From: Schmidtea nova
Lineage: Eukaryota
Direction: 5' to 3'
Assembly: GCA_044892505.1 (NCBI GenBank)
Contig: CM097884.1
Span: 133,796,001-133,860,000, forward strand
Length of the DNA: 64,000 nt
Shown in pieces: positions 5,698 to 63,379 of the stretch. The translations under genes and the position numbers were made by a program. Every line of letters begins with the position of its first letter. Positions within the stretch are counted from its first letter, which is position 1. The notes under the pieces were generated by a model. It searched no databases. It was not told the origin of the DNA and saw only the letters and a list, made by a program, of their open reading frames with translations.

Positions 5698-5723
5698 CTT
5701 AAGTAAATAATGATAAAAAGAAA

Positions 5724-6805: not shown

Positions 6806-7154
6806 TGTTGGGCCCGCCAAATCACCTAAAACCACAATAAAACGAACAAAAGCATGAAACAATAAAGAAATAATAAAAATAAAAATAGCAAGAAAAACAA
6901 ATTAAAAATAACAATAAAACGACAAATAATAATTGATAAATTTTCAGTAAAAGGAAATTTTGAAAATAAACCGGTAAACAACCGCAAAAGGGGGCCTGAA
7001 ATAAGAAAAAATAGAATTAAATAAAATAATAGTGCAAATAATTAATTAATTATTTGAAAAATCAGGACCACCCAGCGAGAAACCGGAAAAGGAAACAAAA
7101 TAATGTTTAGATTAGAATAAAATAATAAAAAATACTTTGATGGACGGCCTGATC

Positions 7155-7192
7155 CTGATTGGTCAATCCAACCAGACGGATCAGTATAAATA
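7155..7192 (+). promoter_or_regulatory. Putative LTR Pol II promoter: reverse CCAAT box and TATA box
   Basis: CTGATTGGTC (about 7155-7164) and TATAAATA (7185-7192). Copies lie at +26723 and +53455. Position is inferred, with no transcript data. Confidence 0.55.
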
Positions 7193-8197
7193 CCGATCCA
7201 AAAATCACAACAAGAGACGTTTTACTTTTCACTTACAATCAAGACTAAACTTTGATTTAAGTAATATTTCATTTAACAAAACGAGAATTTTTTGAAAAAC
7301 AGAATTCAAGTACGGAACGTAATTTTTATTGTTATTTTTTATAATGTACCCATGATTTTTATTCAATTAAAATTTTATATGTAAACGTCATTTTATTTGT
7401 TTTTGATATTGATATTTTAATGCATATAGTTATACTTCCTATGCTGCTCACGCGGCGAGGGAGTCCGAGTCGTCGTTGTGGGGCCTCAGGGTCTCACATG
7501 GCGGTTCAACCTTTTTATTATTTAGTTTAGATGTGGAATTTTATTTAGAAAATTTGATTGAATTCTTAGTCTAGTACAGACCATTTACTAATTATTTAAG
7601 TCTGGGTTGCACAACGGACGAAGGTCGAGGGCCAAATAGGGAGATTGCGGAGGGCGGATTGATAAGGAGGGACACCCCATGGTAGGGCATGCTCATCCTT
7701 TGAATTTTTAGTCAATTGAATCGTAATGGAACCTCCCGCATGGAGAAACAGTGAGCAACAAATAAAATAAATTTGAATAATTTCGCTGAAATGAGAAAAT
7801 TCATCGTAGTCTAAAGTCCGATTTCATTCGGAATCAGCATCTCGCCTACAAAATTATAATATCGATAAATTCCGATCGCGTTGGAATGCGTCGGAAAATC
7901 CAAATTAAATTAGTTACTAAAAATAGGCCGATCGTCGTATATGGCGCGGTTTCCCAAGTTATTCTCCGATCGCTGTATACAGCGCGGAAATCTGTATTAA
8001 ATTCTATATTCCTGAATGCTGTATATAGCACAGGACTAATTATGAACTCTTTATTACGACCGTGGTAGATCACGGCGGAAAAAGATAAAATTAATCTTAT
8101 TTTAAAGTAACTTTTGTGATTATATGCGGTATAAATGAATTATCAACAAATTCCCTCCGGTAAATCACATATTTTATATTCAATAAATGTAATATAG

Positions 8198-8677
8198 ATG
8201 TCGACAGCCGAACTTAGGAATCAATTAACTCAACTACGGAATGTGGAACAAAGGAATATACAGAATGGAAAGATCTCGCAGCTCAAGGATCTACCGGCAT
8301 CGATATTGCGAACCCTCAATTGCCAGATATATAAGTGGCGACATGGGTTTGGCCGAAAATGCCCGTTCTCGATATGGACAGGAGGGAACGACCAAATACT
8401 CTATAGAGGAGGACCGAACTGGCCGATTTCCCAAAGGCCTTATTCAAACAAATTTGGCCGACTTATCGTACTAGTCAAGGACACAGATGGACGGACAAGC
8501 CGTGTAATTTATTGGGGGCATATCCCTCGTCGGGAACTATGCCAACTAGGCCTACACGAATTTCTACCACGAAAACCATTCGGCAAGGAGTGCCAGAAAG
8601 GACAACCCTCATTCTCTTGGGCTCGTCTTCGTCGGAGGCCGATTAACAGCGAATTCCATAGCTTGTTTCGGAGATAA
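8198..8677 (+). CDS. LTR-encoded hypothetical protein A (159 aa); copies at 34921-35400 and 61653-62132
   Basis: ATG-initiated ORF in a GC-richer island of the LTR, flanked by AT-rich spacers. No domain was recognised. Confidence 0.45.
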   Translation: MSTAELRNQLTQLRNVEQRNIQNGKISQLKDLPASILRTLNCQIYKWRHGFGRKCPFSIWTGGNDQILYRGGPNWPISQRPYSNKFGRLIVLVKDTDGRTSRVIYWGHIPRRELCQLGLHEFLPRKPFGKECQKGQPSFSWARLRRRPINSEFHSLFRR

Positions 8678-8864
8678 AAAACTGATTGACAAATGTGTAA
8701 ATTGTGTTCAAATATTAATGTTCAGTGGTGTTTTTATTTTGTTGTTTTGAGTTTTTGTTCAGTGTTTTTTAATAGTTCGTATTCGTAACCTAATAATCCT
8801 ATAATCAGATTTTAATTTTTCACATAATTTAATCATAAAGTAAATCTCCTAAATAAATTATAGA

Positions 8865-9458
8865 ATGACCACCGATTTGATACAGAGAGAATTGGAAAAG
8901 ATGTGGCGGATCCGGAGAGCCCAGGACAAAGAATTGGGTCTCCTCAAGGCACAATTGATCAAAGCAGAGGCACAGATCGCATACTTGCGCAAAAGCTGGT
9001 TTGCTCCGGCCCGAATGAAGGAGCAAATCAGCAAAACCGAACGCGCCCAACAGACCGCAGCCGATTATCAAATGGAATGGGAGGCTACAAAGATAGAGCT
9101 CCGAAAATGCCTCCATTCCGTAACTGCCTCATATATCGAGAAGGAACTCAGAGAGCAAATCCGTCCGGTTACGTACCAAGCTTGGACATCCGAAAAGAAG
9201 ACTGTAAATTCCATTGGCACGGATGTCGCCGATCTAATCGAAAGTCGGAATGAGCCGGTTTCAGCAGTAATTCCATCCACCTCAACGGCAAATGCGCACC
9301 AAAAACGCAAGCGCATTGGGCAGAAAAGGCGAAGACAGAGGAAATTATTCGCGCAGCGATTACAAAGTCAAGTGGATGGTCTACATCAGATGACCGAAGA
9401 GAACTTATTGAAGGAAATTTTCCCTTCAGCTGGAGTTTTTACAGAACTAATTAAATAA
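8865..9458 (+). CDS. LTR-encoded protein B (197 aa), coiled coil plus basic NLS-like patch; copies at 35588-36181 and 62320-62913
   Basis: ATG ORF with a heptad-like N-terminal half and KRKRIGQKRRRQRK. No family was recognised. Confidence 0.55.
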   Translation: MTTDLIQRELEKMWRIRRAQDKELGLLKAQLIKAEAQIAYLRKSWFAPARMKEQISKTERAQQTAADYQMEWEATKIELRKCLHSVTASYIEKELREQIRPVTYQAWTSEKKTVNSIGTDVADLIESRNEPVSAVIPSTSTANAHQKRKRIGQKRRRQRKLFAQRLQSQVDGLHQMTEENLLKEIFPSAGVFTELIK

Positions 9459-9930
9459 AATTTTGGGTTATCTTAAAAAATTTATGTTTCCTTTAAATTG
9501 ATTTGGTAAATTGACAAATAATTAGATCAATATAGTATAAAAGTATAAATTCACATCACGAATTATCTAGTAAAGGCAAATAAATTATTAAGCGAGCAGT
9601 TTGATTTAAACGCTTCCCGCAGAATACGAAATGTTGAAAATAAATTTTCTAAAAAGATTATTGCGGAATATCTAAGCAAATGATTTAAGCATAAGTCCTT
9701 CTAACGGCAGCAATGGACCCGTAAACATAAATGGGGAGTAGTACTAGCGATAGTGCTCACCTGCCCATCATTGTTTAACCACCCTGCGCATCACCAACTT
9801 GATTATATAGGGAAATAATCAAGGGCGCTTGAGTGTAAAATTGCAATTTTATGTATGATCATGGATGAGGGATCCCTAGTCATTGTTAGAACATTTTTCA
9901 TCTAACCCCTCCATGAACCCAGCATAAATT

Positions 9931-9948
9931 TGGGGGCTCAGCCGGGAT
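9931..9948 (+). promoter_or_regulatory. Primer-binding site, tRNA-Pro-like (second copy 36654-36671)
   Basis: TGGGGGCTCAGCCGGGAT lies 6 nt after the LTR end and matches the canonical tRNA-Pro PBS TGGGGGCTCGTCCGGGAT at 16/18 positions. Confidence 0.85.
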
Positions 9949-10253: not shown

Positions 10254-10715
10254 ATGGAGGAAAAACTGAAGGAAATCGAAGAATTTCTCAACACGGAAAG
10301 CGAAACATTAGAAACGATTGGCAAGAAAATAAACCGATTTAGAGAAATTGAATTTCAGGAACCCACAACACAGACTGAGGAAACAGAGGAATTAATAAAG
10401 ATAACAGAAAGAACAAGTAAAATCGACATAAAGACCCGCTACAAATGGTACAGAGCACGATTAGAAGATGCAGAACTAAACATTAAGTTCAGGCAAATAG
10501 GACAACAATTAACCCCAACATACAATCGATGGAGGGCGCAAGGGGTAGAAGCAGCGAAAAAATACCGACAGTGCTATATATGTGAGGATAGGGAGATACA
10601 AATTATGTTTTTACCTTGCGGACATTTTCGTTTTTGTAAAATATGTGCCAGCAAGCGCGACCTATGTCCTATGTGCAACCTGATGATAGACGATAAAATT
10701 ATTGTATATTTATAA
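10254..10715 (+). CDS. IAP/MDM2-type C-terminal RING-HC protein (153 aa), no BIR
   Basis: CYICEDREIQIMFLPCGHFRFCKICASKRDLCPMC ends the protein, followed by a short hydrophobic tail (IIVYL), as in IAP-family RINGs. Confidence 0.85.
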   Translation: MEEKLKEIEEFLNTESETLETIGKKINRFREIEFQEPTTQTEETEELIKITERTSKIDIKTRYKWYRARLEDAELNIKFRQIGQQLTPTYNRWRAQGVEAAKKYRQCYICEDREIQIMFLPCGHFRFCKICASKRDLCPMCNLMIDDKIIVYL

Positions 10716-11197
10716 TAAATAAAATTTGAATGGAATTTTATTGGTTTATTAATGATAAAATCATGGGTACAATTGTCATATATAAATAATTTTTGAGCTA
10801 CTGCAAAGTAGTCCGATAAGAATCCATTGGGAGGTACCGATTGATCAACCTAGTCAGGGTGTATAGAAAGGGGCCCATCGCAAATGTTGGAAAGTTTTTG
10901 TGATGTGATTGATCACCACATCCTGCATTAATGGACCAACGCGATCTTTTTGTATATTTTGGTTGGGGAGAGAGATAGGGAAATCGTGATGGAGTAAAGC
11001 GCGCATAGAGAAAAATAAATAAAAAGGCTAACGCAGACTGATCAGTAAATAATCACGATAGAATAGAGAGAAATGACATTTTTGAAAGAATAAAAGGTGC
11101 ATAGTCAGCTCGCATAGAAGTAGTTATAACTCAGCTGAGAAATTTTAATCGCTAGCGAAGTAGGGAATTGTGATTAACCGGTTAAGTAAAGTTATAT

Positions 11198-11547
11198 GAG
11201 ATTTGTCCCTTGAAACAAAGGGTTAGGAGATTTGTCCCTTGAAACAAAGGGTTAGGAGATTTGTCCCTTGAAACAAAGGGTTAGGAGATTTGTCCCTTGA
11301 AACAAAGGGTTATGAGATTTGTCCCTTGAAACAAAGGGTTAGGAGATTTGTCCCTTGAAACAAAGGGTTATGAGATTTGTCCCTTGAAACAAAGGGTTAG
11401 GAGATTTGTCCCTTGAAACAAAGGGTTATGAGATTTGTCCCTTGAAACAAAGGGTTATGAGATTTGTCCCTTGAAACAAAGGGTTATGAGATTTGTCCCT
11501 TGAAACAAAGGGTTATTAGCGGTTTGTCCCTTGAAAAAAAGGGTTGA
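11198..11547. repeat. 29-bp tandem array (11 full units plus 1 degenerate); copy at 37921-38270
   Basis: The unit GAGATTTGTCCCTTGAAACAAAGGGTTA(G/T) starts every 29 bp from 11198 to 11488, with no spacers. Confidence 0.95.
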
Positions 11548-11587
11548 GGCCAATGAGCCTTATTGAATGACCTAGCTAGGCGTTATG

Positions 11588-11940
11588 GAGAAATTAAATT
11601 GAGGCCAAGAGAGCCATTTGAGAGATTAAATTGAGGCCAATAGAGCCATTTGAGAGATTAAATTGAGGCCAAGAGAGCCATTTGAGAGATTAAATTGAGG
11701 CCAAGAGAGCCATTTGAGAGATTAAATTGAGGCCAATAGAGCCATTTGAGAGATTAAATTGAGGCCAAGAGAGCCATTTGAGAGATTAAATTGAAGCCAA
11801 GAGAGCCATTTGAGAGATTAACTTTTGAGGCCAAGAGAGCCATGTGAGAGATTAAATTGAGGCCAATAGAGCCATTTGAGAGATTAAATTGAGGCCAATA
11901 GAGCCATGTGAGATATAAAATTAAGGCCAGAAGAGCCATA
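11588..11940. repeat. 32-bp tandem array (about 11 units); copy at about 38311-38661
   Basis: Unit GAGAGATTAAATTGAGGCCAA(G/T)AGAGCCATTT. One unit in copy 1 is 34 bp (about 11822). Confidence 0.95.
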
Positions 11941-12552
11941 GTGAACTATAGATATATCCGGATAAAATAGTAATAGAGGGAATATAGACCCATAGTGTAA
12001 TCGTCGACGAGATTTAGAGTAGTGCGCACCAGTAGTTAAGAGAATGCGAGTAAAGCTGATTATGCAACCTTAGGTAAAGCATGCAAGGAGAATAATAAAA
12101 ATTGGAGCTGACCGGAGAAACCGGCAGAATAGACAAAAGGATAAGTTAGAGACGAATAATGAGTAGAGATGATAAAATAATGATAAACGAGTCAGAAAGA
12201 CTCAGGGAATTAGAGCGCTCGAGCGACCAATAATTTGGGAAACGGTGGGAAAAGTAATTGATTTGATAAAACATAGATAATTATTACGACATAAACAGAT
12301 AATTGTGACCAGTCTATAGATAATTTAAATAGACTAAAAATAAAGGGGAATCTGGGAATTGGGAAATAATGAAAACCCAGTAATAAGTAATCCCGAAAGA
12401 AAGTGAATAAAAGCGCGACGATAACAATAATGTATCGTTGAGGACCTTTGTATTTTAGATATACAAATCAATCAAATCAAGCAATCAAGCAAGAAGAATC
12501 AGAACACGATAAGAGATAGGACAAGAAAATTGAGTATACAAAAGTAATCCCC

Positions 12553-15500
12553 TTGAGAAAAGGAGCAAAGAGTGTCGTAGTAAAGCCAACGGAAAAGAAA
12601 GTCGGTAGCAACATTAACAAAAAAGACAAAACTAGTACTACAACAAAATCAACAAAAAAGCAGAAAGCCGGCAAAGATAACCCACAAGGGAGTAAATCGA
12701 GGAAAATAATAAGAGATAAATCGATTACCGAAAACGATAAATTGTCAATAGTAAGCAACAGCTCAAGTAACAAAGAAAACCAAGCCGAACCCAAGGAGAA
12801 CCAAGCAAGTGAAATAGAGAGCGACGAAACTAACAACAATAATATCGAAGAAATAGAACACGAGATAGAACAAGAAGAAGAAATCGACGAAACTAACAAC
12901 GATAATATCGAAGAAGTAGAAAACGAGGTAGAACCAGAGATAGAAATCAACGCGAGTGATAACGAAAGTATAATATCAGATAACGAAGGAATAAAAGAAA
13001 CAGAAAGCGATTCAAGCTCGAGTAAAACGGAAGACGAACATAACAACGAACTAGAAACAAGAGGAAACGAAAGTAAAATAACTCAAGACAGCGGAATTGA
13101 AATGGGTGAACCAAGAGAAGAAATAAAGGATAAATTTTCAGGAGAACCGTTTAACGGAGATGCGAGTAAATTAGAAACCTTTTTAAAAGAATTTGGCATA
13201 TTCGTGGAGGTATGCAAGTGGAAAGCTGAAACAACGGTAAGCAGAATTCAGTTATATTTGAAAGATAGTGCATTGGACCTATATTTGGAAGCGAAAAATG
13301 GTACCAATCCACCTACAAGCTGGACAGCGATAAAGGATTTTTTCCAACAAACATTTGGAATAAATAAAGTGCTGAGCGAGGCATTCATAGAATTCTCAAT
13401 GAGGAAACAAAAGATGAATGAATCTAATGCGGTATACGCGAGCGAACTGAAAAAATTAGCAAAATCGGTATTCAAGGATGGAGGCCCAATAAACGAGGAG
13501 TTAATGGCAGCTATCTTCATAGGAGGACTAAAAAGACCCGACATAAGAGCGCAAGTAGGATGTCAAGGATGCAAAACCATAGATCAAGCGTTAGAAACAG
13601 CTAACCGATTTGAATTGCATATGATAGGAAGTGAGGGCAGAATTTATTTAGCCATGGACACAGCACAAACCGAACCAGAGGTAAATCTCAACAATCACAT
13701 TCCAAATTCGCAACAATTAAACCGACCACCCCCTCAACGAAGGAATGAAGGAAATAAAGTGCAGAACTTTGGAAACCAAAACAATTACAACCCTCAAGGA
13801 CAAACAAAACAATGTAAAACATGCGGGAAGTTGGGACACTGGCAACAAGAATGCTATCAAATTTTGAATTGCGGAAAATGTGGAGTTAAAGGACATTCGG
13901 AGAGTAGATGTTCTACAATAATCTGTTTTAATTGCGGACGACCTGGTCACTATTCAAGAAATTGCGGACAAAAAAGTAATCAACGAGGAAACTGGCAGAG
14001 TAATGGGAACCGACCAAATTACGGAAATCAAGCAAATACCGTAAACCGACCAGATTATGGAAACCAACAAAACAACAATAACAATAATCAGAACAAAACT
14101 ACCACCAAAGAAATTCATTTGATGCAAGAAGTTCAAAGGTTGACGGAACTGATAAACAACACGGCGAGAGGAAATCCGCAAATCAATCCACAACAAATTA
14201 GCATGATGAGAAAGATAGAAAGCGAAAACGAACTATTAAATCGAGAAAGTCAGGCACGACACGCTCAGGAATGGGCAAGAATACAAAGGGAAGATGAACA
14301 AAAACAACAAGAAAGAGAACGACAACCTCTAAGAATTAACATGCTAAGAGCAACAAACCAAACAGACACTCGCGAGAAAGAAACCACACTGGAAATGAAT
14401 TCGATAGACCCGAATCCAGCCGACAACAAAAGTCAAAAGGAGATAGTACAAAAAGATGAGGAAGTAGAAAAAGAAACAGAAAAGGAAGTGGAAACTGAGA
14501 TAAACCAGGAAGAGAGAAGAAAAATTTGGAAAAAAGGAATGATGGTAATCATGCCCAACGACCATATGTTTCGATTCCAATATAACGCAAAAGAAAAGGT
14601 GGAAATACTGTTCAATAAAGTAAACCAGATGATTCCAGGAGTGACAAAACTGCCCAGAGAAGCGTTCTTACAAATAGGAGATGCACCATCAGTAAAATTG
14701 AAATTAACGGATATATGGGAAAACGTGGGAGTAACAGAGACAAAAAGAAATGTGATGAGAATTAAAGAAATAGAACCAGAAGAAATTCCACCACCAATAC
14801 GTCACGAAACCCGAATCCGGCGAATATTTGAAGGAAAAATGATAAGAAGACGTTTAAAAGAGATAGACGAGTTGGGAAAGAAAATGGAAAAAGTCGAAGT
14901 AATAGAGGATAAGAGTGAACCAACACCAGAAATTGACAAAAACGAACCAGAACCAACGGAGAATATACAAGGGGAAACGAACCAAACAGCACATATTAAT
15001 ATGCTAAGAAATACCACCAGAGAGTTCTCCGATGAGGAAGAAGATAGTGACATCAGTAGCCTAGCAGGAGACATATTAAACGAATCCGAAGACGAAAATA
15101 AAGAGAGAGAAGTAATAAAGACCTCAGAACCTACACAGATAAAAGTAGATGAAATCCAGAAATTACTAGATAACTCGCTAGAGGTAATATATAACGAAGA
15201 GTTCATGGACAAGAAACAATATCGGAAATTCATGAAAGCATTATTACAAATGAACTACAAAGAATGGTTACAAGACCGGGAAGTAGACATGTTGAATCGA
15301 TACGTAGGGAAATTAATAGAGGAACCACTCCTCAATTACACCATCTCAATAATAATAAATACATCTACACCAAGAATCTGGATCAAAACTCCATTTACAG
15401 ACGATATCTACAGATGGGTAGAGGATAGACTAGGGAGCTCATATAAAAACAAATTCATCTATTCGCAGAATAGACTCGTAAAGAAAAGAACTCACTTAGT

Positions 15501-18087
15501 AGAAACAGGTATATGGCCAGGAGAAATAACCCTGTTATCAATATGTGATGAAAAAGAAGAAGAGAACCTACAAGAAGTTGCAAGGGAAGCAAACGCGTGC
15601 TTCGAAAGGAGAATAAAACCACGGTTAGAATACGAGAAAGAACGAGTTTTGCGAAAGAATCTAAATTCCCTGATAGAACAAATCATACCACAAGTCAAAA
15701 AACATAGAAAAGAGTTAATGAGAAACGAATACGAGAAATTGAAACGATGTATTGAGTGCATACGTGACACAAGCCACACGAGATGGTCACAGATCTCACA
15801 CGACAAATTAATCGCAAAAATGGGAAAAACAATGTTTAGACAAGGGAAAATAACAGATCTAAAAATTTCAGTAGCATTACCTAATGAGGACACCAAAGAA
15901 ATTGAAGTGGTAGCGGATTGCACCATTAAAGAATTAATAAATGTCATCAATGAGACACTAGTGCAAAGAGAACCAGAAGACGAATGGGAAGACGACATAA
16001 TCATACAATACAACGAACATGTATTATGGGATCACGATGAGAGACGACTATATAAAATCGGTATATGGGATAATCACCAAACAATCCACGTTAGCAGAAT
16101 GGACGATACACCAAGGGAAACTGCTAAAGATGAGAAAAGAGAACGGGAACGACGGAAAGAAGTTGTGCGTAAATTACAACAAATAGTAGAAATTTATCGA
16201 AATTGGCGAATTTGGCCAGAGTGGGAAAATGTATTAGAAGAACTCAATCTCAACAGACGAATACGAACACCCGTAGAAAAACAATGGAACGAGAAAGGAA
16301 AATGTTGGGAACCAAAAGAAGGAGAATATGAAGAAGAATATAAAAGAGGGATAGAAGATGACCGCGAACCAGAGATAGGAAGAGTTTGCATGGTAACAAG
16401 GAAAGCTACGCCAATAGACCTAGATGGACCAGAAACAGCGGCCATGTGGTTAGAAAGGGAAAAGCAAAAAACGGAAGAATTTGTCGAAATATTGAAAACT
16501 AATGCGCACGGTAAGAGAAAATTAATAAAGGGTCTCGCAGATTTTTTCGTGGTAAATGGGGAGGATATAACATGCTTGCGTAAAGTAGCAAAAGCAATCG
16601 CGGAATATAAAAGAGTTAACGAGTGGTGCCCGGAACAACTAGACCACGTAATTAGGAAATGGAGAAATCAAGAATTCTCGCAAGAAATTCCACAGAAAGT
16701 ACATTTAAGAATAATATATCCAAACAAGGATAAGGAAGAGTTGTGGGTAGGAATAGCAGAAAAAATTCGAGATATCAAAAAGAAATTGAGATACGAACCA
16801 CCATTCCATTTACAACACCAAGGACGATCATTAGATAACAGTTTAGAAATTGGAATAACGCCAGCACAACTAGATCTCATGAATACCTTGACAGTAGAAG
16901 CAATAGCAGGTCAACCATTGAAACATAAAGAAGAAAACCATAAACCACACGGAAGTATAAGTACGCCGAGCCCGATGAAATCAGTATTAACACCAGGGAC
17001 AAGTTCGAGACGATCTGAGACAACACCCAGAGGAACCAGAGAAAGGACTCCACCACAACCATACGACGTGGACGAAATCCTAACAGATAGCGATGATATG
17101 ATAGAAGAATTAACTGAATTAACAAAGGAAAAAGACGATAACATTTTCGAAAGAATACAAGAATTACCTACGACAATACAAGTAACCAACACCGGAGAAA
17201 CAGAAGTCGAAGAAGAAATAATAATAGAAGAAGTAAACGATCTGACAGAAGACGAAACGAGAAGAGCAAATGTCGAAAATGTACAATTAACACAAGAAAT
17301 GGAAAGATGGTTAGAAGAAAGAGCTAACGAACCAAGAGATGTCACGGAAGAAACCGGACGGGCAACAAGATTTGTGGAAACAGGCACAGGAATGGATAAA
17401 CGACCTAGAGGTAGACCTAAGACAGACCCAGCAACTGTAGTTGTAAGAAATAAAGACGAAAAGAGACAAGATCAATGGGAATTATGTTTAAGGAAACTAA
17501 ATAAAATTGCGGAGATGAAAGAAAAAGAGACAACACCAATATGTCAAGGGGAGGAATGGATATCAAAAACAATAATGGAAATATTGGCAATAATTGATCC
17601 GGAATTGAGAAAATACTGGCGGATAACTGAGATAAGCGAAAAGGCGAAGTCACTACACAGCGCAATCGCACCCATCCTACCAGAATTCATAAAAGAAAAG
17701 ACGAAGTCAAATCATTTAGACTGGCAAGGAACCACGATGTTAATAAAGAAATTGACAGAAGGAGCGGAAACTGATAATAAATACGTAATAGCCATCGCAT
17801 ACACGATCTACAATCTATTAGCACTGAGTAGAGGTCGACCAAAACCCACTGCATTAGAGAGACATATAAAAAATACCGCAAAGATTATAGCTAGAGAAAT
17901 AGAACCTCACGTTATTAACAAAGGAGGATGGGAAACATTTATAAAAACTAACCAGAAGAAAACGCAAGCCAAGAATATGAAAAAGAAATTCGAAAGAATT
18001 AGGAAAAGAACAAGCAGGAACAGGAAACACGAAGCCATCAATGAATTTGAGTTCTATAATAATTATGATGTTGATATGGATGATTAG
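12553..18087 (+). CDS. gag: Unit 1 Gag-containing polyprotein (Gag, 3 CCHC, Ubl-like x3, AT-hook, Bcl-2-like), truncated by an 11-bp deletion
   Basis: Retrotransposon Gag core from about 13120 and knuckles at 13813-13965. It diverges from the unit 2 ORF after 17999. The ORF-track start is TTG; the first ATG is at 13102. Confidence 0.85.
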   Translation: MRKGAKSVVVKPTEKKVGSNINKKDKTSTTTKSTKKQKAGKDNPQGSKSRKIIRDKSITENDKLSIVSNSSSNKENQAEPKENQASEIESDETNNNNIEEIEHEIEQEEEIDETNNDNIEEVENEVEPEIEINASDNESIISDNEGIKETESDSSSSKTEDEHNNELETRGNESKITQDSGIEMGEPREEIKDKFSGEPFNGDASKLETFLKEFGIFVEVCKWKAETTVSRIQLYLKDSALDLYLEAKNGTNPPTSWTAIKDFFQQTFGINKVLSEAFIEFSMRKQKMNESNAVYASELKKLAKSVFKDGGPINEELMAAIFIGGLKRPDIRAQVGCQGCKTIDQALETANRFELHMIGSEGRIYLAMDTAQTEPEVNLNNHIPNSQQLNRPPPQRRNEGNKVQNFGNQNNYNPQGQTKQCKTCGKLGHWQQECYQILNCGKCGVKGHSESRCSTIICFNCGRPGHYSRNCGQKSNQRGNWQSNGNRPNYGNQANTVNRPDYGNQQNNNNNNQNKTTTKEIHLMQEVQRLTELINNTARGNPQINPQQISMMRKIESENELLNRESQARHAQEWARIQREDEQKQQERERQPLRINMLRATNQTDTREKETTLEMNSIDPNPADNKSQKEIVQKDEEVEKETEKEVETEINQEERRKIWKKGMMVIMPNDHMFRFQYNAKEKVEILFNKVNQMIPGVTKLPREAFLQIGDAPSVKLKLTDIWENVGVTETKRNVMRIKEIEPEEIPPPIRHETRIRRIFEGKMIRRRLKEIDELGKKMEKVEVIEDKSEPTPEIDKNEPEPTENIQGETNQTAHINMLRNTTREFSDEEEDSDISSLAGDILNESEDENKEREVIKTSEPTQIKVDEIQKLLDNSLEVIYNEEFMDKKQYRKFMKALLQMNYKEWLQDREVDMLNRYVGKLIEEPLLNYTISIIINTSTPRIWIKTPFTDDIYRWVEDRLGSSYKNKFIYSQNRLVKKRTHLVETGIWPGEITLLSICDEKEEENLQEVAREANACFERRIKPRLEYEKERVLRKNLNSLIEQIIPQVKKHRKELMRNEYEKLKRCIECIRDTSHTRWSQISHDKLIAKMGKTMFRQGKITDLKISVALPNEDTKEIEVVADCTIKELINVINETLVQREPEDEWEDDIIIQYNEHVLWDHDERRLYKIGIWDNHQTIHVSRMDDTPRETAKDEKRERERRKEVVRKLQQIVEIYRNWRIWPEWENVLEELNLNRRIRTPVEKQWNEKGKCWEPKEGEYEEEYKRGIEDDREPEIGRVCMVTRKATPIDLDGPETAAMWLEREKQKTEEFVEILKTNAHGKRKLIKGLADFFVVNGEDITCLRKVAKAIAEYKRVNEWCPEQLDHVIRKWRNQEFSQEIPQKVHLRIIYPNKDKEELWVGIAEKIRDIKKKLRYEPPFHLQHQGRSLDNSLEIGITPAQLDLMNTLTVEAIAGQPLKHKEENHKPHGSISTPSPMKSVLTPGTSSRRSETTPRGTRERTPPQPYDVDEILTDSDDMIEELTELTKEKDDNIFERIQELPTTIQVTNTGETEVEEEIIIEEVNDLTEDETRRANVENVQLTQEMERWLEERANEPRDVTEETGRATRFVETGTGMDKRPRGRPKTDPATVVVRNKDEKRQDQWELCLRKLNKIAEMKEKETTPICQGEEWISKTIMEILAIIDPELRKYWRITEISEKAKSLHSAIAPILPEFIKEKTKSNHLDWQGTTMLIKKLTEGAETDNKYVIAIAYTIYNLLALSRGRPKPTALERHIKNTAKIIAREIEPHVINKGGWETFIKTNQKKTQAKNMKKKFERIRKRTSRNRKHEAINEFEFYNNYDVDMDD

Positions 18088-21000
18088 CACCGATAGCGCA
18101 ACAGCATTCGAAGTGTTTGATTGCGACCAAATGAAGTTAGGAGAAAAGTATTCATTGAGGGGTACGGAGCAATGCAAAGATGCAACTCCAGTAGAGTTAC
18201 AAAAGATTAAAAAGGAACAATGGTACCACGTGTATCAAGAAGCAGAACTCATAAAGACAATGGTGAATGAATGTAAGGTGCAGAAGACGAGATTCGCTTT
18301 CTACTGCGGGAGAGGACATTATTCAGCAATTGTCATGCCAGGAACGGAAAGAGAACCAATCGTGTTACAAGGAGAAGACTGCGAAGCACTGTTTAAACAC
18401 GGAGAAGTAACAACAAGAGATAAAATCAAGATAAGAGGAAAGCCAGGAATGATGATGCAACAGACGTACTATGTAGCAGGACGGATTACGGGAGGAGAAG
18501 GATATTGTCAAGGAGAAACCTACCCGATATTCGGAGTACCCGCAACCAACTTAGTGGTGATGGATACGTACATAGTCGAACTAAAAAGCTACGAAGCATT
18601 CTTTGAACCCACAACGGGAGAAATGAAAACGTTATCCATGTGTAAAATCGACAGGAGCATGTGTCAAACGGGAATGTCAACATTAGTGTACAAACCAAAG
18701 GTAAACGAATGTCAGTTACAACTGCTACAAGGAGCAAAGTTCGACGAAATCCAAGGAAAAACGTTCCAGGAAGAAGACGATGACGACAAAGATAGAGCAA
18801 AGCATCTCAAGGAAGCTTTAGAGAATAAAAGACAACTGAAACCGGATCATAGAGAAAAACGAATAGAGATGAGAGCCACACCAACAGTATTGATAACCAC
18901 AAATCAGGATGTGGGAATGAGGTTCATAAAAGGGAAAGCAACCCTTAAGTGTAGTACAACGGTATACGAAACGAATTACCCAGGAATATATGTGTCAAAA
19001 CAAGAAGTGCCGAATGCGAAACCCAAAATCGACACAATGGATATCAAACTACACTTGTATGTGAATAATAAAATGGATTTCCTATTCCATAGAGGACAAG
19101 CCTCATTACAAAAAGTGTACTACGATCTAATAAACAATGATTGTATACTGAATCGAGAAATATTAAAGACAAAGTTGGCCGTGGCGATTACGAATCCAGA
19201 TAGAGCGATGCCATTATTACCACTGAGAGAAGGACATTTCGGAAGAGTGGTCGGAGAAGCAATGTACGTATACATTTGCGAAAAAACACACGCGTCGCTA
19301 GCAGCAACAACACAGTTGAAACCTGGAACCTGTACAAATGAGTTAGAAATCGATTACAAAGGAAAAGTACGATACGTTCAACCGGTGACGAGAATCATCA
19401 ATCCACCAGGGTTTGAACCAAATCCATTCAACTGTAGTAATGCGTACGGACCGCTCTATCAGAAACCAGATGGTAGATGGGTTATGTTCCCAGGAAGATC
19501 CGAAGTGATAGCACCAAGAGAATTCGAGCTAATGCAGTTGTCAAAGGATAGGCAATTCAGCGACGTAGATGTCTCAAACAACGGAATATATAGTCCGAAA
19601 GATTTAGAAGCAGCAAGGCAGAATATATTATTTCCAGCGAGAAGAGAAGCATTACTGTCAAATATCGTAACGATAACGGGAGGAACGAATTATCGAGAAG
19701 GACCGAATTATGAACTGTTGTTGTCACCAGCACATTTCAAGAAAGCCACCGAAAACATGATGAAAGCAATGTGGGGAAGATTCTTGATATTCGGACAAAT
19801 GATGGCTGGAATACTGGGGGTTATATTAATAATCCAAATCGTCAGAGTGATAATAACGCAAATGCTCGCGTGTTTTGACATCTACAAGAGAGAAAAGAAA
19901 GTGAATTGGAAAATGGTAGTAGGGTTTTTACCATTCCTTGCGAAAACGATGGTGTTACACGGGCACTCAAAAGATATCCACCGAATAAAAAGACTCCTAA
20001 AGATATTAGCAAAAATGAAGGGAACAGATGAAGAAGTAGGACGAAAATTTAAAAAGATAATGAACGACGAACAAGCAAGACAACAGCTCAAGAGAGAAAG
20101 AAAAGGTTTATGGGAGAGGATGAAAGGATATAAAACCCAAAATGATTCGAGTGACGACGATGATGACGATGACGACTATAAGGGAGGACAAGTGTATAAG
20201 AACCAAGCACCACAATACATCGAAAAGAATCCAGCCGACGCATGGAAATGTTACGCACCTCCACCAACAATGTATCAAGAACCACTACAAGGGGGAAAAA
20301 ATAGCACGATGCAAATGATGCCAATGACAAATGTATACCCCATGATACCAGAAGATTATAAAATGAGAAGATGTAGAAGCGTAGATCCACAAGGAGATAC
20401 ACACACGATCGCAGTAATGTCATCCAACACAGGTCCAGTACTAACCACGACAATAGAGATTAACGGAAGAGAAATCGAAGCAATGATCGACACGGGAGCA
20501 AACATTTCCGCCATCGACATCAAATGGATACCACAAGAGCAAAGACGGGAAATAGAAAGGACAAACGTCCATGTAATTGCATGTAGCAAAGAAGTTGTAG
20601 AAGTAGCAGGAAGATGGTGGGTAAAAATACGCCACTTAAATACAGAAATCGATACGTACGTAGCAGTCATACCAGCGTTAAGTGTACCTTGCATCATCGG
20701 AACAGATTTGATGCCAGCATTATTTAAAGAAATTGTAATCGATCTCGGAACAATGAGACTGAAAGATCGCACAGGGCAGATATGCGCAATAGAAGCTAAA
20801 GTGACGAGTTCAAAGCAAATGATCATACCCGCAAGAAAGGAAAAAATATGTTATGTAAAAATAGATCCGACAATCCAAGGGGATATGATTTTCGAACCAA
20901 GTAAAAGATTCGAGAAAAGAAAAGCGTTGCCAATGGCAAGAGGATTAGTCAACATAAATGACAATGGAGAAATCCCAATAAATATGGTAAATTTCGACGA

Positions 21001-29557: not shown

Positions 29558-29681
29558 GGGCGGATTATGACTGTAAATAATAGTGTAAATAACAAAGCAT
29601 TACCGTAATAGTATGGGTATCGATATTATAAAAATTGTAAAAAGCTAGAAAAACAAAGTAAATGATGTATATAATTTAGAA

Positions 29682-30038: not shown

Positions 30039-30131
30039 ATAAATAAAGCGGAAAACTGTAAATATGTAAAAATAAAAACAAGAAAAATCAAAAAATAAAT
30101 GACAAGTCGAATGTATATATTATTGTAGAAA

Positions 30132-31508: not shown

Positions 31509-31619
31509 TGAAGGAAATAACCATGTAAATAAAATGTAGAAACAATATGAAATAACAAATAATCAAAAACAATAAAAATAAAAACTGATTAAATATTCTC
31601 TTTATCTGTAATTATAGAA

Positions 31620-32681: not shown

Positions 32682-32723
32682 ATGCGCGGAAACCAAGTGT
32701 AAATAAATTATGTAAAATAAAAA

Positions 32724-36976: not shown

Positions 36977-37438
36977 ATGGAGGAAAAACTGAAGGAAATC
37001 GAAGAATTTCTCAACACGGAAAGCGAAACATTAGAAACGATTGGCAAGAAAATAAACCGATTTAGAGAAATTGAATTTCAGGAACCCACAACACAGACTG
37101 AGGAAACAGAGGAATTAATAAAGATAACAGAAAGAACAAGTAAAATCGACATAAAGACCCGCTACAAATGGTACAGAGCACGATTAGAAGATGCAGAACT
37201 AAACATTAAGTTCAGGCAAATAGGACAACAATTAACCCCAACATACAATCGATGGAGGGCGCAAGGGGTAGAAGCAGCGAAAAAATACCGACAGTGCTAT
37301 ATATGTGAGGATAGGGAGATACAAATTATGTTTTTACCTTGCGGACATTTTCGTTTTTGTAAAATATGTGCCAGCAAGCGCGACCTATGTCCTATGTGCA
37401 ACCTGATGATAGACGATAAAATTATTGTATATTTATAA
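36977..37438 (+). CDS. IAP-type RING protein, unit 2 copy
   Basis: Identical translation to 10254-10715. Confidence 0.85.
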   Translation: MEEKLKEIEEFLNTESETLETIGKKINRFREIEFQEPTTQTEETEELIKITERTSKIDIKTRYKWYRARLEDAELNIKFRQIGQQLTPTYNRWRAQGVEAAKKYRQCYICEDREIQIMFLPCGHFRFCKICASKRDLCPMCNLMIDDKIIVYL

Positions 37439-56289: not shown

Positions 56290-56863
56290 GGGCGGATTAT
56301 GACTGTAAATAATAGTGTAAATAACAAAGCATTACCGTAATAGTATGGGTATCGATATTATAAAAATTGTAAAAAGCTAGAAAAACAAAGTAAATGATGT
56401 ATATAATTTAGAAATGACCGAACAGGACGAAACAACTGAAATAACTATGGCTATGAGATGGAAGGCACAATGTGATTTATTAGTACGAACAGTCAACTCA
56501 TTACAGAACCAATTAGCGGAAAGACAAATGTTATTATCAGAAAGTTATAACAACTGTTTTGAACAATTACACAGAATAGAAGAACAACAAAGAGCGATAA
56601 CTGAACTCACCAGAGAAAATCAAACGATAAGCAACACCAATCAAAGACAAGCAATAGAAATAAACCATTTAACACGAGGAGAAAGAGAAGGATCCGAAGA
56701 AGGATGGATGAGTTGGGTAATAAATAGATTAAACAACGAAGCGGAACCAGATTCAACGAATGAGCCATAGATAAATAAAGCGGAAAACTGTAAATATGTA
56801 AAAATAAAAACAAGAAAAATCAAAAAATAAATGACAAGTCGAATGTATATATTATTGTAGAAA

Positions 56864-58240
56864 ATGGACAGAGAAGAACGAATAATCGAAATTTTGAGAC
56901 TAGAAAACAGAAAATGGAGCAAGAGACTCACATGCGGAAAATGTAATAATTTATTGCGAGAACCCAGACAAACGATATGTGGATGTAGAATATGTACAAA
57001 ATGTATACAAGAATTAGAGGCAACAGGAATAACAACATGTCCAGAATGTAAAGAGGGAAGAATAGTGTTGGACGAAACTAGAACGGACAAAGCAACCCAA
57101 AGAGAAATTATGAGCACCACAACGGAGTGCGTAAATACACCTTGTACATGGCAAGGACAAATAAGCAATCTAGAGAATCATATGGGAAAATGCGAGGAAA
57201 AGAGAGCCGAATGTGAGAAATGCCAACAGACAATAACTCTAAAGAAGAGAGAACAACACAAGGAAGAATGTAAAGAAGAAGAAATCGCATGCGAGTATTG
57301 TGAAACTCGAGAAACGAGGAGAAAAATCGAAGAAGAACATTTGAATATAACAGAGGAGAAAGTATGCGGACAATATGCAAGTAAATGTCCAAACGATTGT
57401 GAAATAACAGAAGAAATAAAGTTACATGAACATTGGAAAGTATGTACCGAAAGGCCAAGAGAATGCCCATATAACAAGCATGGATGCAAGGAAAAGCGGA
57501 CGCGACAAACAATGAACAAACATCTAGAAGAAGCAGCACTTACGCATGTGGAAATGACAAACGAAACGACAAGAGAAACGGAACAGACAATCCAGAAATT
57601 AGGAAAAGAAGTAGAATCACATAAGATAATGATGAGTTTACTACTAGAAACAAGAGAGCAGTTTGAACTAACTCGCGAAAGAATGGAAAAGAAAATAATA
57701 GCCATAGAAGAATTAGGAAAAGGAATGAAAATACAATATAATCAATTAATACGAGAAATTGACGAAAGAAGGGACTTACCAATCGCACCTTACCTATGGA
57801 AAGTAACAGATTTCAGAGACAAACTAGCAGAAGCCAGAAATATGACGAAAACAGCAGTAATAAGCCCACCATTTTATTTATGGAAAAACGGGGTTAAAAT
57901 AAGATTGAAAGTATACCCAAATGGAGACGGAAGAGGACAAGGAACACACGTGTCAATATTCTTCTCACTATGTAAAGGAGAATACGATGACCTAATAGAA
58001 TGGCCCTTGAAAGTAGGAGTCATTATAAGAATCAAAAGTATGGGAAAACCAGTAGAAAAATTCTTTGAAACAGACAAACATACGAGTACAAGTGAAAAAC
58101 CAACAACGGAATGCGGACTAGCAGCAGGAGAACCAATGTTTATAAGGAAGGAAAACCTATGGGAACGACTATATGCAGACACGCTATACATAGAGATGGA
58201 GAGGCATGAGAAAACGGATAAAAAAGGATGGTTGGCGTAA
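56864..58240 (+). CDS. TRAF: TRAF-family protein, unit 2 copy
   Basis: Same as 30132-31508 except V/E in NL(V/E)NH. Confidence 0.92.
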   Translation: MDREERIIEILRLENRKWSKRLTCGKCNNLLREPRQTICGCRICTKCIQELEATGITTCPECKEGRIVLDETRTDKATQREIMSTTTECVNTPCTWQGQISNLENHMGKCEEKRAECEKCQQTITLKKREQHKEECKEEEIACEYCETRETRRKIEEEHLNITEEKVCGQYASKCPNDCEITEEIKLHEHWKVCTERPRECPYNKHGCKEKRTRQTMNKHLEEAALTHVEMTNETTRETEQTIQKLGKEVESHKIMMSLLLETREQFELTRERMEKKIIAIEELGKGMKIQYNQLIREIDERRDLPIAPYLWKVTDFRDKLAEARNMTKTAVISPPFYLWKNGVKIRLKVYPNGDGRGQGTHVSIFFSLCKGEYDDLIEWPLKVGVIIRIKSMGKPVEKFFETDKHTSTSEKPTTECGLAAGEPMFIRKENLWERLYADTLYIEMERHEKTDKKGWLA

Positions 58241-60260
58241 TGAAGGAAATAACCATGTAAATAAAATGTAGAAACAATATGAAATAACAAATAATCAAAA
58301 ACAATAAAAATAAAAACTGATTAAATATTCTCTTTATCTGTAATTATAGAAATGGGAAATATAGAGGTAACCTTACAAGAAGTAACCGTACATCAAGACG
58401 AAATGATCAGAAATCACATGGAGCGGATTGGGAGATGGATTCATGCCTATTATCGAAAACAGGAGGAATTAGAAAGACAAACCGAAGCACTAAGAGAAGC
58501 CGAGAAAACGAATCAAAGAAGTCGAGAAAAAATAGAAGAAGTCTACAAACTGCTAAGACAACAAAACGAATACTACAAAGAGATGATGAAAGAGCGAAGA
58601 GAGGATAGGGATAGACAACAGATAAAAACAGACCATAAGATCCAGTCAATCACCGAACAAGCAAGATATTGGAAGAAAGAGGCAAAAGACTCTTACAAGG
58701 AAGCAAGGGAGATAATAGAACGAACAGCGTATAGCGATGATTGGAAACTATTTAAAGAGATCGATGAATTAAAAGAGGAATTAGGGCAAAAGATCAGTCA
58801 AGAAGCGTCAAATAAAGTATGGAGTAAGAAAAGACAACAATTTATCAGAGAACAAGCCAAGAAAATTAAAGAATTAACTTATCAAGTGCAAAGAATGGGA
58901 GAAGATTTGGCCAATCAAGAACAGTTAAAAGGTATGCTGACCGGAATGTGGAATCACAAGGAAGAAAACATGAAAAGAGACATAAATGGATATCAAGGAG
59001 TGATTACCCAGAAGAAAATAGAATTAAAAAGAACTAAAGAAAGACTGGAAGAAACGAGGCAGAGTTATGAAGAGAACATAACAAATTTGACAAAAGAAAA
59101 CGAAGAACTGAGAAAGAAGTTGGCAGAAAAACCAATACCAATAAAAGAAACAAGTATCACAGCAGCAGTGACCGAAATGATGGAGAAGGAAGAGAGAGAG
59201 AAAAAATTGACAGAACTGGAAAAACAAATTGAAACCCTAACAGAACAGGCGAACTATCTGGAATACTTATTAGATGAAGAGATCCAGATATCCCACACAT
59301 ACCGAGAAGAAGTAGAAATGTGGAGGAGCACGGTAATATGGATGCCACTCCCCATAAACCAAGTGGAACCTCAAGACGAAGGTTTTCACGAACCCAACGA
59401 AACCCTGGTATAAATGCGCGGAAACCAAGTGTAAATAAATTATGTAAAATAAAAAATGTCAAACTGTATTGACCAATGTATAAAAGAGATGAGAAAGCTC
59501 ACAATAGCAACCCTCCTATGGTTAACAACCATTACCCTACAGAGAGAAGATTTACAACTAACCGAAACCCAATTACGAGCTCTACCCGACAAAACCTACC
59601 AGAAAGTAGACAACCTAATCGAGGAAGTAATTAAAGAAATCAACGAATTCCGACAGAAATACCCCCACAATCAAGACCATCAAATCCAACAAATTTTCGG
59701 TAACCAACAACTGAAATTAAAAGAAACCCGAAAAATCCTGAGAGAGGGTAGAGAGCCCATAAAAAGCCTATCCCAAGCTGAAATAGAATATCAAGAAAAA
59801 TGGATCATAGCAATCATCATAATCCTATCAGTCAGCACAACTATCATCGCAATCACAATCCTACTTGCCTCATATAGAATAAAAATCCTAAAACAAAAGC
59901 AGAAAATCTACAACCAAACCTCCAGACGAGATAACCGAGCTCAAAGACGAATAAGGAGCCATCTCAACCACATTCAAACCCACTACGAGCTACAAATAAT
60001 CAACGAGAGGACCCGAACTCAACCCCAAGCGAGCCAGACGATCGAACAAATTGTATAAACATTATGATAACTTATCGAACTATTGTGACAAATCATTACA
60101 TTTTGACTATTTAGTGACAAACTTTATGATATGTATAAATTCGATCACCTTATGTGATTTTTCTTTGCATGTATAACTTTATAAAACTTTTTATGGATGA
60201 TGAATATAAGTAGTTATGTATAATTAATTGCGGGACGCAATTTTAGGGGTCCCCGGGTGA

Positions 60261-63200
60261 TGTTGGGCCCGCCAAATCACCTAAAACCACAATAAAACGA
60301 ACAAAAGCATGAAACAATAAAGAAATAATAAAAATAAAAATAGCAAGAAAAACAAATTAAAAATAACAATAAAACGACAAATAATAATTGATAAATTTTC
60401 AGTAAAAGGAAATTTTGAAAATAAACCGGTAAACAACCGCAAAAGGGGGCCTGAAATAAGAAAAAATAGAATTAAATAAAATAATAGTGCAAATAATTAA
60501 TTAATTATTTGAAAAATCAGGACCACCCAGCGAGAAACCGGAAAAGGAAACAAAATAATGTTTAGATTAGAATAAAATAATAAAAAATACTTTGATGGAC
60601 GGCCTGATCCTGATTGGTCAATCCAACCAGACGGATCAGTATAAATACCGATCCAAAAATCACAACAAGAGACGTTTTACTTTTCACTTACAATCAAGAC
60701 TAAACTTTGATTTAAGTAATATTTCATTTAACAAAACGAGAATTTTTTGAAAAACAGAATTCAAGTACGGAACGTAATTTTTATTGTTATTTTTTATAAT
60801 GTACCCATGATTTTTATTCAATTAAAATTTTATATGTAAACGTCATTTTATTTGTTTTTGATATTGATATTTTAATGCATATAGTTATACTTCCTATGCT
60901 GCTCACGCGGCGAGGGAGTCCGAGTCGTCGTTGTGGGGCCTCAGGGTCTCACATGGCGGTTCAACCTTTTTATTATTTAGTTTAGATGTGGAATTTTATT
61001 TAGAAAATTTGATTGAATTCTTAGTCTAGTACAGACCATTTACTAATTATTTAAGTCTGGGTTGCACAACGGACGAAGGTCGAGGGCCAAATAGGGAGAT
61101 TGCGGAGGGCGGATTGATAAGGAGGGACACCCCATGGTAGGGCATGCTCATCCTTTGAATTTTTAGTCAATTGAATCGTAATGGAACCTCCCGCATGGAG
61201 AAACAGTGAGCAACAAATAAAATAAATTTGAATAATTTCGCTGAAATGAGAAAATTCATCGTAGTCTAAAGTCCGATTTCATTCGGAATCAGCATCTCGC
61301 CTACAAAATTATAATATCGATAAATTCCGATCGCGTTGGAATGCGTCGGAAAATCCAAATTAAATTAGTTACTAAAAATAGGCCGATCGTCGTATATGGC
61401 GCGGTTTCCCAAGTTATTCTCCGATCGCTGTATACAGCGCGGAAATCTGTATTAAATTCTATATTCCTGAATGCTGTATATAGCACAGGACTAATTATGA
61501 ACTCTTTATTACGACCGTGGTAGATCACGGCGGAAAAAGATAAAATTAATCTTATTTTAAAGTAACTTTTGTGATTATATGCGGTATAAATGAATTATCA
61601 ACAAATTCCCTCCGGTAAATCACATATTTTATATTCAATAAATGTAATATAGATGTCGACAGCCGAACTTAGGAATCAATTAACTCAACTACGGAATGTG
61701 GAACAAAGGAATATACAGAATGGAAAGATCTCGCAGCTCAAGGATCTACCGGCATCGATATTGCGAACCCTCAATTGCCAGATATATAAGTGGCGACATG
61801 GGTTTGGCCGAAAATGCCCGTTCTCGATATGGACAGGAGGGAACGACCAAATACTCTATAGAGGAGGACCGAACTGGCCGATTTCCCAAAGGCCTTATTC
61901 AAACAAATTTGGCCGACTTATCGTACTAGTCAAGGACACAGATGGACGGACAAGCCGTGTAATTTATTGGGGGCATATCCCTCGTCGGGAACTATGCCAA
62001 CTAGGCCTACACGAATTTCTACCACGAAAACCATTCGGCAAGGAGTGCCAGAAAGGACAACCCTCATTCTCTTGGGCTCGTCTTCGTCGGAGGCCGATTA
62101 ACAGCGAATTCCATAGCTTGTTTCGGAGATAAAAAACTGATTGACAAATGTGTAAATTGTGTTCAAATATTAATGTTCAGTGGTGTTTTTATTTTGTTGT
62201 TTTGAGTTTTTGTTCAGTGTTTTTTAATAGTTCGTATTCGTAACCTAATAATCCTATAATCAGATTTTAATTTTTCACATAATTTAATCATAAAGTAAAT
62301 CTCCTAAATAAATTATAGAATGACCACCGATTTGATACAGAGAGAATTGGAAAAGATGTGGCGGATCCGGAGAGCCCAGGACAAAGAATTGGGTCTCCTC
62401 AAGGCACAATTGATCAAAGCAGAGGCACAGATCGCATACTTGCGCAAAAGCTGGTTTGCTCCGGCCCGAATGAAGGAGCAAATCAGCAAAACCGAACGCG
62501 CCCAACAGACCGCAGCCGATTATCAAATGGAATGGGAGGCTACAAAGATAGAGCTCCGAAAATGCCTCCATTCCGTAACTGCCTCATATATCGAGAAGGA
62601 ACTCAGAGAGCAAATCCGTCCGGTTACGTACCAAGCTTGGACATCCGAAAAGAAGACTGTAAATTCCATTGGCACGGATGTCGCCGATCTAATCGAAAGT
62701 CGGAATGAGCCGGTTTCAGCAGTAATTCCATCCACCTCAACGGCAAATGCGCACCAAAAACGCAAGCGCATTGGGCAGAAAAGGCGAAGACAGAGGAAAT
62801 TATTCGCGCAGCGATTACAAAGTCAAGTGGATGGTCTACATCAGATGACCGAAGAGAACTTATTGAAGGAAATTTTCCCTTCAGCTGGAGTTTTTACAGA
62901 ACTAATTAAATAAAATTTTGGGTTATCTTAAAAAATTTATGTTTCCTTTAAATTGATTTGGTAAATTGACAAATAATTAGATCAATATAGTATAAAAGTA
63001 TAAATTCACATCACGAATTATCTAGTAAAGGCAAATAAATTATTAAGCGAGCAGTTTGATTTAAACGCTTCCCGCAGAATACGAAATGTTGAAAATAAAT
63101 TTTCTAAAAAGATTATTGCGGAATATCTAAGCAAATGATTTAAGCATAAGTCCTTCTAACGGCAGCAATGGACCCGTAAACATAAATGGGGAGTAGTACT

Positions 63201-63379
63201 AGCGATAGTGCTCACCTGCCCATCATTGTTTAACCACCCTGCGCATCACCAACTTGATTATATAGGGAAATAATCAAGGGCGCTTGAGTGTAAAATTGCA
63301 ATTTTATGTATGATCATGGATGAGGGATCCCTAGTCATTGTTAGAACATTTTTCATCTAACCCCTCCATGAACCCAGCA
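60261..63379 (+). repeat. LTR3 (3119 bp)
   Basis: Same sequence. Identity with LTR1 and LTR2 stops exactly after …GAACCCAGCA at 63379. Confidence 0.95.

Follow-up and report, generated by a model that had tools for sequence, protein, structure and literature searches.

A Burro-like giant Ty3/Gypsy retrotransposon of Schmidtea nova with an in-frame viral-type envelope and predicted cell-death- and ubiquitin-type cargo

The described elements most similar to the one reported here are Burro1-4/GYPSM1 of Schmidtea mediterranea; they are ~30 kb long, with an internal region of up to ~25 kb and a first open reading frame (ORF1) of ~5,000 amino acids (PMC6431247; this and the other papers are represented here by excerpts of their texts). 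Their cargo comprises a Gag with 2-3 CCHC knuckles, a Ubi2/SUMO-like domain, a BCL2-like domain and a mononegavirus-like env placed in frame between gag and pol, further a dUTPase-like domain between protease (PR) and reverse transcriptase (RT), ankyrin, MATH/TRAF and BIR domains, and the leader carries tandem repeats; the elements were proposed to be integrated proviruses which meddle with apoptosis and ubiquitination (PMC6431247). BURRO1 is transcribed upon loss of PIWI (PMC8532177), and the protein of Burro1 containing RING and BIR (B-IAP) is reported to shield planarian stem cells from caspase-mediated apoptosis (PMC13465017, citing Lee et al. 2026, Dev Cell). Here we describe a segment (6806-63379) of a 64,000-nucleotide stretch from the AT-rich, 1.25-Gb genome of Schmidtea nova (GenBank assembly GCA_044892505.1, contig CM097884.1, positions 133,796,001 to 133,860,000 of the forward strand); the whole stretch is called the window, and positions given without a prefix refer to it. 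The reading we favor, with a probability of roughly 80%, is that the segment holds two tandem copies of a Burro-like Ty3/Gypsy retrotransposon, which is young and high in copy number, and that its selected envelope glycoprotein (Env) and its cell-death- and ubiquitin-type cargo probably aid survival and spread of the element in host cells.

An earlier note, made from the letters of the window, had taken 6806-63379 for one giant element of ~29.85 kb; the unit size was right, but there are two such units, which share a middle long terminal repeat (LTR). By self-BLAST, 6806-36648 recurs at 33529-63380 with 99.93% identity, and the resulting layout is LTR-internal-LTR-internal-LTR, with three 3,119-bp LTRs bounded by TG...CA (6806-9924, 33529-36647 and 60261-63379; these and all coding features below are on the forward strand). 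LTR 1 and LTR 3 are exactly identical and the middle LTR, common to both units, carries one private base; the internal regions, 23.6 kb in length, differ by five substitutions and two small indels. A single 4-bp target-site duplication (TSD) flanks the whole pair (6802-6805 on the left, 63380-63383 on the right), as seen from comparison of the flanks and from contigs of other runs. An 18-nt primer-binding site, complementary to the 3′ end of host tRNA-Pro(TGG) plus CCA, follows both LTR 1 (9931-9948) and the middle LTR (36654-36671). Direct TG...CA repeats, TSD and tRNA primer site are the structural hallmarks of Ty3/Gypsy elements. Contigs from runs X1, X2 and X3 link both flanks through one copy of the 4-bp target; because the target is itself repetitive, this empty site is not counted as proof of a polymorphic insertion.

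Since one TSD surrounds two units, unequal LTR-LTR recombination within one insertion is the best explanation, and the pair most likely arose in this way. That the assembly has instead written two haplotypes, or one repeat path, twice is improbable; the near-identity of the units would fit such an artefact, and the junction was judged from contigs alone, which cannot test it, but the substitutions and indels between the internal regions and the private base of the middle LTR speak against it. Further head-to-tail spacings in the family do so as well: four copies in the same orientation lie ~33 kb apart on C1 (G000:C1:590855609-590956163), possibly a longer tandem array. The family to which the window element belongs is real whichever way the tandem is explained. 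Two observations concern LTR and primer site. Each LTR contains ORFs of 159 and 201 amino acids (8198-8677 and 8853-9458 in LTR 1, with twins in the other two) without a Pfam family, the longer of which has homologues in L011 (33% identity, 6e-20) and L073 (27%, 6e-15). The tRNA-Pro 3′ pattern has 899 matches genome-wide, and at G000:C1:459.61-459.66 Mb (L067) tRNA-Pro(TGG) genes form large tandem arrays whose repeat unit measures 308 bp.

The coding layout is best seen in copy 2, where a single open frame of 5,682 amino acids (39241-56289; first methionine at residue 195) encodes, in this order, Gag, ubiquitin-like domains, a Bcl-2-like domain, Env, PR, RT, RNase H (RH), integrase (IN), ankyrin repeats and seven repeats resembling fibronectin type III domains (FN3) with two membrane anchors. 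In copy 1 a frameshift near 18.0 kb divides the corresponding region (12520-29557), leaving two frames, 12520-18087 and 17981-29557. The Gag capsid region with its three CCHC knuckles (39823-40686) was recognized in Pfam scans as Retrotrans_gag (5.5e-4) and zf-CCHC (1.9e-7 and 3.7e-10). Env (44779-46617), located between Gag and PR and directly preceding the latter, matches Monjiviricetes_fusion (PF24664, 4.7e-73) and has, by hydropathy, an internal signal peptide and a transmembrane segment enclosing an ectodomain with 14 cysteines. Pol (47143-50520) contains PR, a weak dUTPase-like segment, RT, RH and IN with a GPY motif; PR, RT, RH and IN are found by Pfam, their catalytic motifs are present, and the best match in the PDB is Ty3-G Gag-Pol (6e-119). 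CCHC Gag, the order PR-RT-RH-IN and an RT closest to that of Ty3 place the element with Ty3/Gypsy also by domain content. The ankyrin region (50620-52500) scored 3.6e-13 in one Pfam scan and 3.6e-15 (Ank_2) in another.

Two further ORFs add recognizable signalling domains. Downstream of the long frame, an ORF of 459 amino acids (56861-58240; 30129-31508 in copy 1) has RING, zinc fingers, coiled coil and MATH; as RING and zinc fingers match TRAF6 (1e-13) or TRAF2, and MATH matches TRAF3 (2e-23), 5 or 2, it is considered a complete TRAF. Upstream, an ORF (36977-37438) ends in an IAP-type RING (zf-C3HC4_3, 5.9e-12) nearest to that of XIAP/cIAP (2e-10); its 153-residue counterpart in copy 1 (10254-10715) was assigned through this twin. 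BIR was not detected by Pfam in the ORFs scanned, nor was its Cys/His motif in the six frames of the element. Judged from sequence, the Env, ankyrin, TRAF and RING assignments are firm. What the earlier note had named a Gypsy-type element with Gag, Pol, a viral-type glycoprotein, a complete TRAF and ankyrin repeats is thereby borne out, and its IAP-type RING stands as well, albeit in a protein lacking BIR.

The remaining ORFs are less telling. A small coiled-coil ORF of 129 amino acids (56381-56770), kept in a BIR-bearing relative described below, lies between the long frame and TRAF; TRAF is followed by a coiled-coil ORF of 362 amino acids without a named family (58325-59413; 31593-32681 in copy 1) and by one of 201 amino acids with signal-like and transmembrane segments (59453-60058; 32721-33326 in copy 1, whose downstream ORFs together span 30129-33326). 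The leader contains tandem repeats of 29-bp and then 32-bp units (37918-38665, twin at 11195-11944). The 194 codons before the first methionine of the long frame (39241-39822) are open in 10/10 copies, with a ratio of nonsynonymous to synonymous substitution rates (dN/dS) of 0.43, a hint that translation starts at a non-AUG codon or that a leader is spliced on. The coding strand of 36648-60260 is strongly A-biased (A 43.8%, T 19.2%).

The Bcl-2-like, ubiquitin-like and FN3-like modules, also proposed in the earlier note, were supported by weak but concordant profile and fold matches, and none of them reached significance in Pfam on the window sequence (best Ubiquitin_4 0.056, Fn3_ELFN 0.23 and Fn3_Dep-1 0.062); profile and structure comparison of the accessory modules thus left TRAF, RING and ankyrin firm and these three below threshold. 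The Bcl-2-like helical domain (44188-44700) ends in a GGW motif resembling BH2. It has no Pfam match, and a PDB search with the single sequence was empty; at the equivalent position of two other families of the genome, Pfam reports Bcl-2 at 1.1e-4 and 6.2e-6, below cut-off, and the window segment is 24% identical to one of these sisters (E 8e-4). A profile built from three sequences matches Bax and Bcl-xL (E 0.005-0.02), and the Foldseek matches listed for the predicted model are all of the Bcl-2 family (E 0.02-0.08). Up to four ubiquitin-like domains (41251-43626) precede it, at 41251-41493, 42055-42270, 42577-42822 and 43417-43626; the last two are better supported, and the Ubiquitin_4 score refers to one of the four. 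A five-sequence profile (A4), which leaves out the two weakest domains and replaced a poor seven-sequence alignment (A3), matches ISG15 and ubiquitin (E 0.0045-0.01), and the homologous domain of the BIR-bearing relative matches Rad60-SLD (E 0.023). Homologues of the ubiquitin-like/Bcl-2 region were not found in a set of 5.8 billion proteins, of which lengths 3,125-9,944 were searched.

After ankyrin, membrane block 1 (52846-54618) consists of a signal-like segment, four Cys-bearing FN3-like repeats and a transmembrane anchor; block 2 (54826-56100), with three repeats and an anchor, is its diverged duplicate (31% identity). The seven repeats have four invariant residues in common, and their predicted fold is a beta-sandwich (pLDDT 83.5) matching mostly FN3 and some Ig structures (E 0.04-0.15). 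Their profile retrieved 54 proteins at E up to 0.001 among 1.84 billion, and Pfam fn3 is present in 8/10 of those scanned; against PDB sequences the profile found nothing, and the first block had no homologues in the 5.8-billion-protein set. For the segment between PR and RT, 5/5 PDB matches are dUTPase or dCTP deaminase, all weak (E 0.18-0.55), and Pfam finds none.

The element belongs to a large and young family. A genome search with its Bcl-2-like segment gave 976 candidates, of which the 150 scored showed 92-100% amino acid identity; by hand count, ~33 of these belong to frames of 5,600 amino acids or more. Ten full-length copies, picked from an LTR search, served as the sample for comparison of TSDs, LTRs and dN/dS. 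All ten have a 4-bp TSD and the same primer site, and their LTR pairs are 99.87-100% identical; yet these LTRs are only ~88-91% identical to that of the window, and therefore many lineages must have inserted recently. When the window copy was compared with the ten, dN/dS was 0.02-0.45 in 20/20 segments, which leave out ankyrin and Pol. Values were 0.02-0.20 for the ubiquitin-like domains, 0.04 for the Bcl-2-like domain, 0.03 for Env (N-terminal 356 codons) and 0.04-0.30 for the FN3 region (repeats of block 1, 0.04-0.14; block 2, 0.30); outside the long frame they were 0.10-0.16 for TRAF, 0.43 for the RING ORF, 0.05 for both the 129- and 362-residue ORFs and 0.27 for the downstream 201-residue ORF. 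All cargo modules compared in this way are under purifying selection across young copies.

A topology can be proposed from hydropathy, which places a signal inside the frame ahead of Env, an anchor in Env itself and more segments of both kinds around the FN3 blocks. One polyprotein would be threaded several times through the membrane of the endoplasmic reticulum, its Gag, ubiquitin-like and Bcl-2-like domains remaining cytosolic, until the internal signal peptide directs Env into the lumen; past the Env anchor, Pol and ankyrin would again be cytosolic, with Pol on the cytosolic tail of Env, and the later signals and anchors would yield one or more FN3-type surface proteins. The Env signal peptide, which follows within ~35-45 residues of the Bcl-2-like domain in three families, may double as tail anchor for the latter; the order Bcl-2, signal, Env also occurs in two other families of the genome with RT identities of ~47-48%. 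The element protease probably frees the modules at a recurring hydrophobic border motif, a candidate cleavage site on grounds of sequence: it has 12 matches, compared to 3.2 in shuffles (1/2000 shuffles as high), INML occurs three times (0/2000 shuffles), and the sites mark the border of capsid and nucleocapsid, bracket PR and recur between RH and IN and between IN and ankyrin. The predicted effect of the RING, TRAF and Bcl-2-like proteins in producer cells is a weakening of death and stress signals.

Several points weigh against this picture and the favored reading behind it. On the window sequence the Bcl-2, ubiquitin-like and FN3 matches all fall below curated cut-offs, Foldseek E-values are 0.02-0.15 and the Bcl-2-like model has a pLDDT of 52. 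The canonical BH1 motif, NWGR, is absent from the Bcl-2-like domain, for which reason it is doubtful whether BH3 is bound; instead of a BH3 trap, the domain may be a scaffold. The border motif was defined after its sites had been seen, and three sister ORFs have 0, 0 and 1 matches. Each FN3 block also contains a further hydrophobic segment, which makes the topology uncertain, and the dN/dS comparisons are non-independent since the window copy is common to all and only full-length copies entered. Roles of the element in cell death and NF-kB signalling, as well as its expression, are predictions.

What selection acts for can be read in other ways. The element could be a true extracellular infectious virus, with a cargo comparable to the immune-evasion kits of large DNA viruses and FN3 proteins serving as surface adhesins or decoys, a possibility that appears doubtful. 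Signal peptide, Cys-rich ectodomain and anchor of Env together with its dN/dS of 0.03 would agree with it, as would the recent insertion of many lineages evident from the LTRs and the provirus idea put forward for Burro in the excerpted text of PMC6431247; however, Env would be expected to be under selection also if it served spread between the cells of a single animal or had a role in budding, and just two relatives of Env (35-39% identity) were present among 5.8 billion clustered proteins in the length window. The immune-evasion reading competes, moreover, with the role in stem-cell survival reported for the Burro1 IAP in the excerpt of PMC13465017 (citing Lee et al. 2026), which leads to the tentative alternative that cargo is kept mainly for host benefit, in stem-cell survival and regeneration. 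Besides that report, the at least 1,295 candidate places for BIR+RING in the genome would suit it; but the window family has no BIR, and selection among dispersed young copies acts during replication of the element and does not in itself prove benefit to the host. Survival and spread of the element itself, aided by Env and cargo, is the reading we retain.

The BIR+RING combination does occur in a second element of the same genome. It is very abundant and 25 kb long (L002:4793 to L004:9850 and L008:4711 to L010:9340, G000:C1), and has LTRs of 4.1-4.2 kb that are 99.9% identical within pairs and show no match to the window LTR; the tRNA-Pro primer site is the one also used by the window element. 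Its cargo comprises a RING ORF, an ORF with ubiquitin-like domain, PR, ankyrin and an FN3-like repeat, a small ORF, a TRAF, an IAP with BIR and RING, and coiled-coil and membrane ORFs. Gag, Env, RT, RH and IN were not found by tblastn in 2/2 copies, and none of its 150 scored protease matches is in a frame longer than 1,070 amino acids; from sequence, it looks like a non-autonomous carrier of cargo. One might go further and regard the window family as a still-spreading enveloped giant metavirus, whose polyprotein also yields surface proteins of the FN3 type, be they adhesins, decoys or superinfection blockers, and which acts as helper for this very abundant relative, itself devoid of Gag, Env, RT and integrase while retaining protease, TRAF and BIR+RING IAP, so that a helper-satellite pair would split replication from cell-death control; this scenario seems unlikely.

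Smaller families are present as well. In one group (L014-L015 and L018-L019; G000:C1:60.08 Mb and C2:373.5 Mb) a frame of 3,393-3,401 amino acids encodes Gag, two ubiquitin-like domains, a Bcl-2-like domain, Env, Pol, and a signal, ectodomain and anchor, followed by an ORF of 483 amino acids in which DEDDh exonuclease-like motifs are visible by eye, without a Pfam match. A third family (L071-L073; G000:C2:375.6 Mb and C1:288.8 Mb) has a frame of ~3,060 amino acids and, immediately ahead of its Env signal peptide, the clearest of the Bcl-2 matches. One genome thus offers a graded series, from smaller Gag-Bcl-2-Env-Pol families through the cargo-rich window family to a non-autonomous IAP carrier, which could show how cargo is gained and traded. 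Elsewhere in the window, a hAT-type transposase extends over two frames (94-2156; Dimer_Tnp_hAT 2e-6), and at position 709, in their overlap, contigs of two runs have another letter; 4538-5942 and 2925-3224 hold palindromic repeats of very high depth, resembling miniature inverted-repeat transposable elements, and a short ORF with a terminal Cys-rich motif which we take to be piggyBac-like.

The earlier note had suspected a relative of Burro, and the module order agrees with that described in the excerpts of PMC6431247. With Burro1-4/GYPSM1 and the Burro-like element of Dugesia tigrina, the window element shares size (29.85 kb), a giant ORF1, CCHC Gag and leader repeats; as in Burro, a ubiquitin-like domain (by profile match) is followed by a Bcl-2-like one (sub-threshold but concordant) directly before an env in frame ahead of PR, and ankyrin and MATH/TRAF are present, the TRAF as a downstream accessory ORF. 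The missing BIR sets it apart. So do the position of TRAF, a complete separate gene downstream of pol where Burro1 has MATH inside ORF1 and D. tigrina in an upstream ORF, and the length of ORF1, which exceeds that of Burro and ends in two FN3-like membrane blocks not mentioned in the excerpted text. For three 20-base primers published for BURRO1, the best matches here extend to 16, 14 and 14 bases, near the level of reversed-primer controls. Identity with Burro1 is ruled out by the absence of BIR, by MATH lying in a downstream TRAF and not in ORF1, and by the primer mismatch; the element is filed as Burro-like and not as a member of Burro because BIR is missing and the likeness is one of layout.

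Apoptosis- and ubiquitin-type cargo in a giant Env-bearing element, as the earlier note envisaged, is thus upheld by domains and purifying selection, but layout, provirus idea and tinkering with apoptosis and ubiquitination are already published for Burro, as the excerpts of PMC6431247 make clear. New relative to Burro may be the FN3-like membrane-protein block and the absence of BIR; a literature search returned nothing combining giant LTR retrotransposon, planarian and fibronectin type III, although the primary Burro papers or the figures and supplements of PMC6431247 may already show a membrane block or a BIR-less Burro. If the prediction holds, a single polyprotein would give rise not only to Gag, Env and Pol but to FN3 surface proteins as well. 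The TRAF/MATH expansion described from planarian transcriptomes (excerpt of PMC6109357) may be due in part to TRAFs carried by elements.

Bcl-2 fold, ankyrin and IAP-type RING families are found among the host-modulation genes of poxviruses and baculoviruses. The likeness of the window element to these is one of domain families and by analogy alone, its modules being mostly parts of a polyprotein. Order of PR-RT-RH-IN, tRNA primer site and 4-bp TSD are those of Ty3/Metaviridae; unlike errantiviruses, where env is a separate third ORF (excerpt of PMC6431247), the window element carries env in frame between gag and pol, coding for a glycoprotein of the Monjiviricetes type. With elements of the Burro type the distinction between transposon and virus becomes blurred, and one of them is reported, in the excerpt cited above, to protect stem cells of its host; both B-IAP of Burro1, with BIR and RING, and the protein of the window family, with RING only, are IAP-type RING proteins borne by an element.

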